Positions 7,942 through 8,413 of a DNA stretch of 8,879 nt are shown one piece after another. The notes below the pieces were generated by a model. It saw only the letters and a list, made by a program, of their open reading frames with translations, made no database searches and was not told the DNA's origin. The position numbers and the translations under genes are program-made. Each line of letters starts with the position of its first letter. Positions within the stretch are counted from its first letter, which is position 1. Location: assembly GCF_003334785.1 (NCBI RefSeq), contig NZ_QOWV01000035.1; one strand, written 5' to 3'. Source of the DNA: Escherichia coli (GTDB lineage: Bacteria; Pseudomonadota; Gammaproteobacteria; Enterobacterales; Enterobacteriaceae).

Positions 7942-8413
7942 CCGGACTCTGAAAGATTACCAATACTCATCGTCCATCCGCTTGCTTTAGGCTGACAGGT
8001 TCATAATCAACGCAAACCAGAGCTGTACAGGCTTGGGCGCGGCTTTCAAACCAGTCGTGATCACGGCAATCAATTTTGAACTCTGCTTAACGGACATTTC
8101 TGTATAACCCTTACGGCAACGAAAAACGCGAAGTTAAAATTTTAGAAACCCAAAAACGTGACATGACTAAGTTTAGATTTCAGGGGGGGAGATCAAAAAA
8201 TTTCGCTCTGTGCCAGAGCGGACATTCACGGAGCTGGTTCATTACCAATGAGGTTGGGCTTTTGAGGATAAATCAATGATCAGACGCCAACGTAAATCAA
8301 AAGCAACCCTGGAACGGAATTGCTAATCCAGTTTCTGACCATCGATTTTTCTAAAAAGTGTGCGTTTGCTACTACTTAGGTAGGTGCAGCTTTCTTAATC
8401 ACCGGCAGCCACG

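Follow-up and report, generated by a model that had tools for sequence, protein, structure and literature searches.

The 16-codon mini-ORF downstream of fecE in the window (the whole stretch of 8,879 nucleotides of Escherichia coli DNA that was analysed) is probably a chance open reading frame in acquired spacer DNA, which ribosomes sample at a low level. The evidence comprises its sequence features, weak signals of initiation and elongation in the ribosome footprints of two E. coli strains, a lack of conservation and the mosaic character of the gap in which it lies. The mini-ORF is already catalogued as a non-selected, potentially translated intergenic smORF (cluster Escherichia_200559), the same ORF being listed in Table S4 of Fesenko, Sahakyan, Shabalina and Koonin (2024; PMC11188072). 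What is new here is its genomic anatomy, namely a mosaic gap after fecE, with no homologue at other fec operons and no downstream gene.

The list of ORFs and the RefSeq annotation of identical DNA identify the window as the E. coli fecIRABCDE ferric-citrate locus, with plus-strand ORFs of 173, 317, 774, 302, 332, approximately 318 and 255 amino acids, and the identities of fecB, fecC, fecD and fecE are supported by the records of ATCC 11775 and K-12 MG1655. In many complete E. coli genomes the DNA identical to positions 7800-8879 is annotated as fecE, a hypothetical protein and an IS3-family transposase pseudogene. The sequence-only reading had placed the mini-ORF in the right-flank intergenic region, and it does lie between the stops of fecE (7856) and of a convergent ORF (8414), inside a gap of 557 nt. 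This convergent ORF (8414-8827) is the counterpart of the K-12 pseudogene yjhV, and since its relatives, dinucleotide-binding (F420/NADP-type) oxidoreductases, have 205-231 amino acids, it represents a C-terminal fragment. It has no match in NCBIfam or PADLOC, and its RefSeq names vary between hypothetical protein, NAD(P)-binding domain-containing protein and pseudogene. Full-length yjhV-like relatives (74-78% nucleotide identity) adjoin an HxlR-type regulator gene in two metagenome contigs (L091 and L092). Beyond the fragment lies the IS3 transposase pseudogene, also on the minus strand. No gene is encoded on the plus strand after the mini-ORF, either among the ORFs of the window or in the annotation of ATCC 11775 and K-12. 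The features of the locus are collected in Table 1.

Table 1. Features of the fecE 3' region (window positions, except for the K-12 MG1655 row, which gives genome positions).
Feature	Position	Strand	Evidence or remark
fecE, last gene of the fecABCDE operon	7089..7856	+	ORF list; RefSeq annotation of identical DNA in ATCC 11775/K-12
fecE 3' flank common to C. youngae, ~75-80% identity with indels	7857..7990		nhmmer E=1e-8; gapped alignment
207-nt stretch present in E. coli only, relative to C. youngae	7991..8197		alignment gap
24-codon scrap of an ISKpn21/ISNCY-type transposase	8006-8077	-	tblastn, 17/24 identical, aa 148-171
Variable poly-G tract	8177-8183		G7 in window, G6 in K-12 MG1655
Intrinsic-terminator-like hairpin CGCTCTGGCACAGAGCG followed by U-run AAATTTTTTG	8195..8220	-	terminator scan and fold
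Second C. youngae-shared segment, with hairpin	8198..8262		local alignment 41.5 vs shuffles 23.5 +/- 3.0
Hairpin CGCTCTG-TGC-CAGAGCG, one more pair possible on each side	8204-8220		-12.1 kcal/mol
Orphan DNA containing the mini-ORF	8263..8413		no match detected beyond the fec island of E. coli
Shine-Dalgarno-like GAGGA, effective core GAGG	8264..8268	+	sequence
Long imperfect hairpin, ~32 bp, antisense to the mini-ORF	8268..8350	-	-29.2 kcal/mol, z = -4.6, 0/200 shuffles
Mini-ORF, 16 sense codons MIRRQRKSKATLERNC plus stop	8276..8326	+	sequence; ATG 8276-8278, TAA 8324-8326
yjhV-like ORF, convergent, 5' side truncated by IS DNA	8414-8827	-	C-terminal fragment of an F420/NADP-type dinucleotide-binding oxidoreductase
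Mini-ORF in K-12 MG1655	4510271-4510221	-	alignment; carries Leu12Met

Alignment with the fec locus of Citrobacter youngae (L005) resolves the gap into blocks of different history. Window positions 7854-7990 correspond to C. youngae 3766-3890, the E. coli-specific stretch follows, and the second shared segment carries the last detectable C. youngae homology, which ends at about 8262; the Shine-Dalgarno element of the mini-ORF starts one base after. Imperfect direct repeats of 13 nt, GGTTCATAATCAA (7998-8010) and GGTTCATTACCAA (8236-8248), are found near the ends of the 207-nt stretch. The G7/G6 change in the poly-G tract frameshifts a 38-codon ORF (8163-8279), whose TGA overlaps the ATG of the mini-ORF (ATGA), and this upstream ORF is therefore not conserved within E. 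coli. With its transposase scrap, its 207-nt insert, a truncated neighbour gene and flanking IS elements, the gap is a junk-like mosaic.

Several candidate sources of the mini-ORF were considered, most of which were rejected. The ISKpn21 transposase does not account for it, as the recognisable 24 codons (8006-8077) stop short of the mini-ORF, nor is the orphan DNA the native 3' flank of a yjhV-type gene, the homologues in L091-L093 being similar only from the stop codon inward. In C. youngae an ORF of 183 amino acids (L005 4011-4562) lies directly downstream of fecE; its product matched nothing in NCBIfam or PADLOC and lacks a counterpart in E. coli genomes. TGAGGAT...ATGA occurs at the starts of both this gene and the mini-ORF, but a relic of the gene start was rejected because the alignment score (16) is that of shuffled sequences (17.2 +/- 3.1). 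Positions 8232-8302 might be a decayed piece of the interior of the same gene: the nucleotide alignment is statistically suggestive (38.5 versus 22.8 +/- 2.9 for shuffles), but there is no similarity at the protein level, and the match conflicts with the collinear alignment. The C. youngae fecE flank had no match in E. coli genomes, and a phage collection held no match to the orphan stretch.

The elements described in the sequence-only reading, GAGGA, its spacing, the ATG, 16 codons and the TAA, were all confirmed when the sequence was read again. GAGGA is separated from the ATG at 8276 by a 7-nt spacer (TAAATCA). The canonical Shine-Dalgarno sequence is UAAGGAGGU, and of GAGGA the part complementary to the anti-Shine-Dalgarno sequence of 16S rRNA is GAGG (8264-8267) only. 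The mini-ORF is consequently preceded by a 4-nt core located 8 nt before its ATG, which is moderate and adequate, not strong. Such a pattern is within chance expectation. When ATG ORFs 10-50 codons long and preceded at 5-9 nt by a 5-mer Shine-Dalgarno match were counted on both strands of the window, two were observed against 2.3 +/- 1.4 in dinucleotide shuffles. Shuffling of the 557-nt gap itself produced at least one mini-ORF with a Shine-Dalgarno match and ATG in 12% of cases (5-mer) or 30% (4-mer cores), and the pattern is therefore not beyond chance. The peptide is hydrophilic and basic, without a hydrophobic stretch. Six of its 16 residues are lysine or arginine, a share reached by only about 1% of the chance ORFs obtained by shuffling the local DNA; this property was chosen after the fact, and the composition is a mild oddity. 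Trypsin would cut such a K/R-rich 16-mer into very short peptides.

Ribosome profiling with an initiation inhibitor such as retapamulin had been proposed as a check for an initiation peak at 8276, and published data provide one, at weak intensity. Table S4 draws on the retapamulin profiles of Meydan et al., analysed again with smORFer. Its K-12 row (NC_000913.3 4510223-4510271, minus strand) reports 10 TIS and 18 RPF with an RPF coverage of 0.83, and the BL21 row (NC_012971.2 4423620-4423668, minus strand) reports 19 TIS and 88 RPF with a coverage of 1.0 (PMC11188072); one further column of the mini-ORF rows holds the value 887. The K-12 strain profiled by Meydan et al. was BW25113 delta-tolC. 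Among the known small proteins of that table, TIS reads run from 5 to over 40,000; the counts of the mini-ORF lie at the low end and are comparable to those of some accepted low-abundance ones (ynaL, 6; ecnA, 8; ynhH, 10) (PMC11188072). The authors also note that the TIS signals of intergenic smORFs are significantly lower, that most show no sign of selection and that many of them may owe their signal to translation that is spurious or low-level (PMC11188072). No Onc112 row for the mini-ORF was found in the parts of the text of PMC11188072 that were available, and PIRT-seq has no mini-ORF entry. According to this literature the mini-ORF is weakly translated in two E. coli strains and displays, if weakly, the antibiotic-trapped initiation peak by which small proteins are recognised.

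The predicted structure of the plus strand agrees with weak translation. The fold around the Shine-Dalgarno element and AUG has an energy of -8.2 kcal/mol (z = -1.3), and since both elements are weakly paired in predicted folds, initiation at a low level would be expected. Plus-strand folds are unremarkable in general (z = -1.3 to -1.7). Between fecE and the mini-ORF the only terminator-like site on this strand is a weak one (8054-8067), the strong hairpin at 8204-8220 being without a following U-run, and after the mini-ORF there is a single weak match (8361-8388, three GC pairs). No promoter-like site was found on the plus strand.

The DNA that carries the mini-ORF is also young. An 81-nt piece around it is present in 2,715 of 5,426 complete E. 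coli genomes; 2,334 records are identical and 383 have one or two base differences, and the whole gap is at least 99% identical in 2,737 of 2,739 records. At other fec loci it is missing. The fecE of Klebsiella-type plasmids (75% identical) loses its similarity exactly at the stop codon, the mini-ORF DNA is absent after fecE in Klebsiella plasmids, Enterobacter soli, Citrobacter youngae, Silvania and Photorhabdus, and among 80 species-representative fecE loci C. youngae alone has part of the flank. No second copy of the stretch emerged when E. coli genomes, plasmids and phages were searched for distant matches. Two candidate diverged copies, both reached through the yjhV-like protein, were rejected: L089 is identical across the mini-ORF, and L094 differs only by homopolymer deletions in a pattern typical of long-read assembly error.

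Within E. coli, five sampled records carry C8309T (synonymous), C8304T (A10V), A8306C (T11P, twice) and one rearrangement, to which MG1655 adds C8309A (L12M). The latter is found in records of the MG1655 lineage, and other K-12 records (DH5a, C3026) match the window. In the rearranged strain (E. coli 08_3323) the gap is broken after codon 8 of the mini-ORF (from window position 8301) and joined to an unrelated frameshifted pseudogene, so the locus tolerates such a change. The tally of three non-synonymous variants, one synonymous variant and one truncation comes from a tiny, non-random sample, and the 3:1 ratio fits neutrality. The four sampled SNP alleles affect three sites in a 6-nt span (8304, 8306 and 8309), at the apex of the minus-strand hairpin; this clustering could mean that the quasi-palindrome there is prone to mutation, or could be an artefact of sampling five records only. 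For the published cluster dN is 0.042 and dS is 0, and the cluster did not pass the dN/dS<0.5 filter (PMC11188072). No annotation covers the mini-ORF in K-12 RefSeq or in ~100 sampled RefSeq records. As the fec island is so young (at least 99% identity), an absence of purifying selection is statistically undemonstrable, and the comparison, which has low power at this identity, suggests neither conservation of the reading frame nor purifying selection. Conservation in related genomes, another check proposed from the sequence, thus speaks against the mini-ORF, as the stretch is confined to the at least 99%-identical E. coli fec island. Of the two absences that the sequence-only reading had named as evidence against its own proposal, that of conservation was found, but an initiation signal is present.

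Our data suggest the following origin. A horizontally acquired, IS-scarred patchwork downstream of fecE may have given rise to the mini-ORF by chance. Its template would be a read-through transcript from fecABCDE that exposes GAGG-N8-AUG; we infer read-through because no plus-strand hairpin with a U-run behind it lies between the end of fecE and the mini-ORF. The published profiling conditions were not chosen to induce fec, and induced expression could be higher. Ribosomes would start at GAGG-N8-AUG at a low rate and produce a basic peptide of 16 residues, presumably inert and without a selected function. As no cistron lies downstream, the mini-ORF has nothing to regulate in cis. Initiation reads obtained independently in two strains and elongation footprints spanning 83-100% of the mini-ORF argue against this reading, since they put its translation on a level with that of some accepted low-abundance small proteins, and so does the K/R-rich composition.

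The same reads are an argument for a young, lineage-restricted microprotein, a basic 16-mer translated from the fec 3' end or a separate transcript and acting in trans, for example by binding RNA, the ribosome or a Fec protein. The Ribo-RET and RPF signal is reproducible in K-12 and B strains, the composition is unusually basic and hardly any carrier has a broken mini-ORF (at least 80% of the 81-nt piece is covered in 2,715 of 2,717 records). An intact frame would be expected anyway in DNA so young, however, and conservation is limited to the at least 99%-identical block, within which non-synonymous alleles such as T11P and A10V exist and the mini-ORF of one strain is cut short; with dN/dS not below 1 and no annotation in any record sampled, we consider a selected microprotein unlikely. 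More specific roles in cis are harder still to accommodate. A leader or attenuator, or a 3'-UTR ORF controlling Rho termination or stability of the fec mRNA, would agree with a short ORF that has a Shine-Dalgarno element, is on the same strand as fecE and is separated from it by no plus-strand terminator. Such control is extremely improbable, given that no plus-strand gene follows, that the plus strand offers no terminator/antiterminator alternative (z about -1.3 to -1.7) and that the ORF is missing from every other fec locus examined. The sequence-only reading had proposed a regulatory or leader peptide and, equally, a chance ORF; the latter has stood, with weak translation besides, and the leader has not, there being nothing downstream on the plus strand.

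The functional element could alternatively be on the minus strand, comprising the long hairpin (8350->8268) and the terminator-like hairpin (8220->8195), with the plus-strand mini-ORF as its incidental mirror image. It might serve the yjhV-like gene as 3' UTR and terminator, or constitute an sRNA-like transcript. The long hairpin is far more stable than its shuffles (Table 1), against -14.1 kcal/mol (z = -1.3) for its plus-strand version, and it is single-copy in E. coli genomes. The terminator-like hairpin is located ~50 nt 3' of it on the minus strand, and also 3' of the yjhV-like stop, and there is a weak promoter-like site on the same strand (8475->8448). The terminator stem is kept in C. 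youngae, and its U-run was created by the E. coli-specific insert. Against this stand the lack of an Rfam family (the only match was a sub-threshold one to a plant miRNA) and of any 3' end within K-12 4510100-4510699 in Term-seq tables, which are possibly incomplete. Each of the four SNP alleles sampled destabilises the hairpin without a compensating change, the gene upstream is a pseudogene that has been truncated, the span was picked after the fold had been seen and the plus-strand ribosome footprints are left unexplained. A literature search found no sRNA paper covering the fecE 3' region. On balance a functional minus-strand element is improbable, although it is compatible with a chance mini-ORF on the plus strand. 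A combination of the two, in which a young de novo basic 16-mer and an antisense hairpin/terminator RNA form a module that tunes the fate of the fec mRNA or acts in trans, appears very unlikely.

The biological importance of the mini-ORF, as a chance ORF, is small. The lesson is that a good Shine-Dalgarno element with an ATG, and even a reproducible retapamulin peak, can arise in mosaic junk without conservation or a cis target; because this retapamulin-positive mini-ORF lies in such DNA, an initiation signal alone should not make mini-ORFs genes. If the peptide did function, the locus would represent a datable de novo gene birth within a mobile iron-uptake island.

Among known systems, attenuation leaders precede the operon under their control, carry stretches of the regulatory amino acid and overlap with alternative terminator structures. 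The mini-ORF is similar to the thrL and hisL leaders in size (~16-21 codons; hisL also has 16) and in having a Shine-Dalgarno element, but it follows the last gene of its operon, faces a convergent pseudogene and has no leader features. It is not placed upstream of and co-directionally with a regulated gene, and in place of a regulatory codon run MIRRQRKSKATLERNC repeats only two adjacent arginines; we know of no ribosome-arrest motif within it. Alternative terminator/antiterminator structures are missing from the plus strand, and the mini-ORF is not conserved with the operon across species. Type I toxin peptides are hydrophobic and insert into membranes, which is not the case for this peptide, though a candidate antisense structured RNA exists. 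Another comparison is with validated small proteins of E. coli discovered by initiation profiling, such as YnaN (a basic peptide of 15 amino acids), PssL and SpfP, which the mini-ORF resembles in length, in its Shine-Dalgarno element and ATG and in its retapamulin peak, and YnaN also in its basic composition. In contrast to these three proteins it is unannotated and constraint is not evident, and its counts are 6- to 100-fold lower than those of ynaN (TIS 112) and pssL (TIS 1453) (PMC11188072). Its low TIS and RPF, its unannotated status and its absent selection signature agree in each respect with the non-conserved, weakly translated intergenic smORFs (PMC11188072), of which it is one, with the same coordinates and peptide and no difference.
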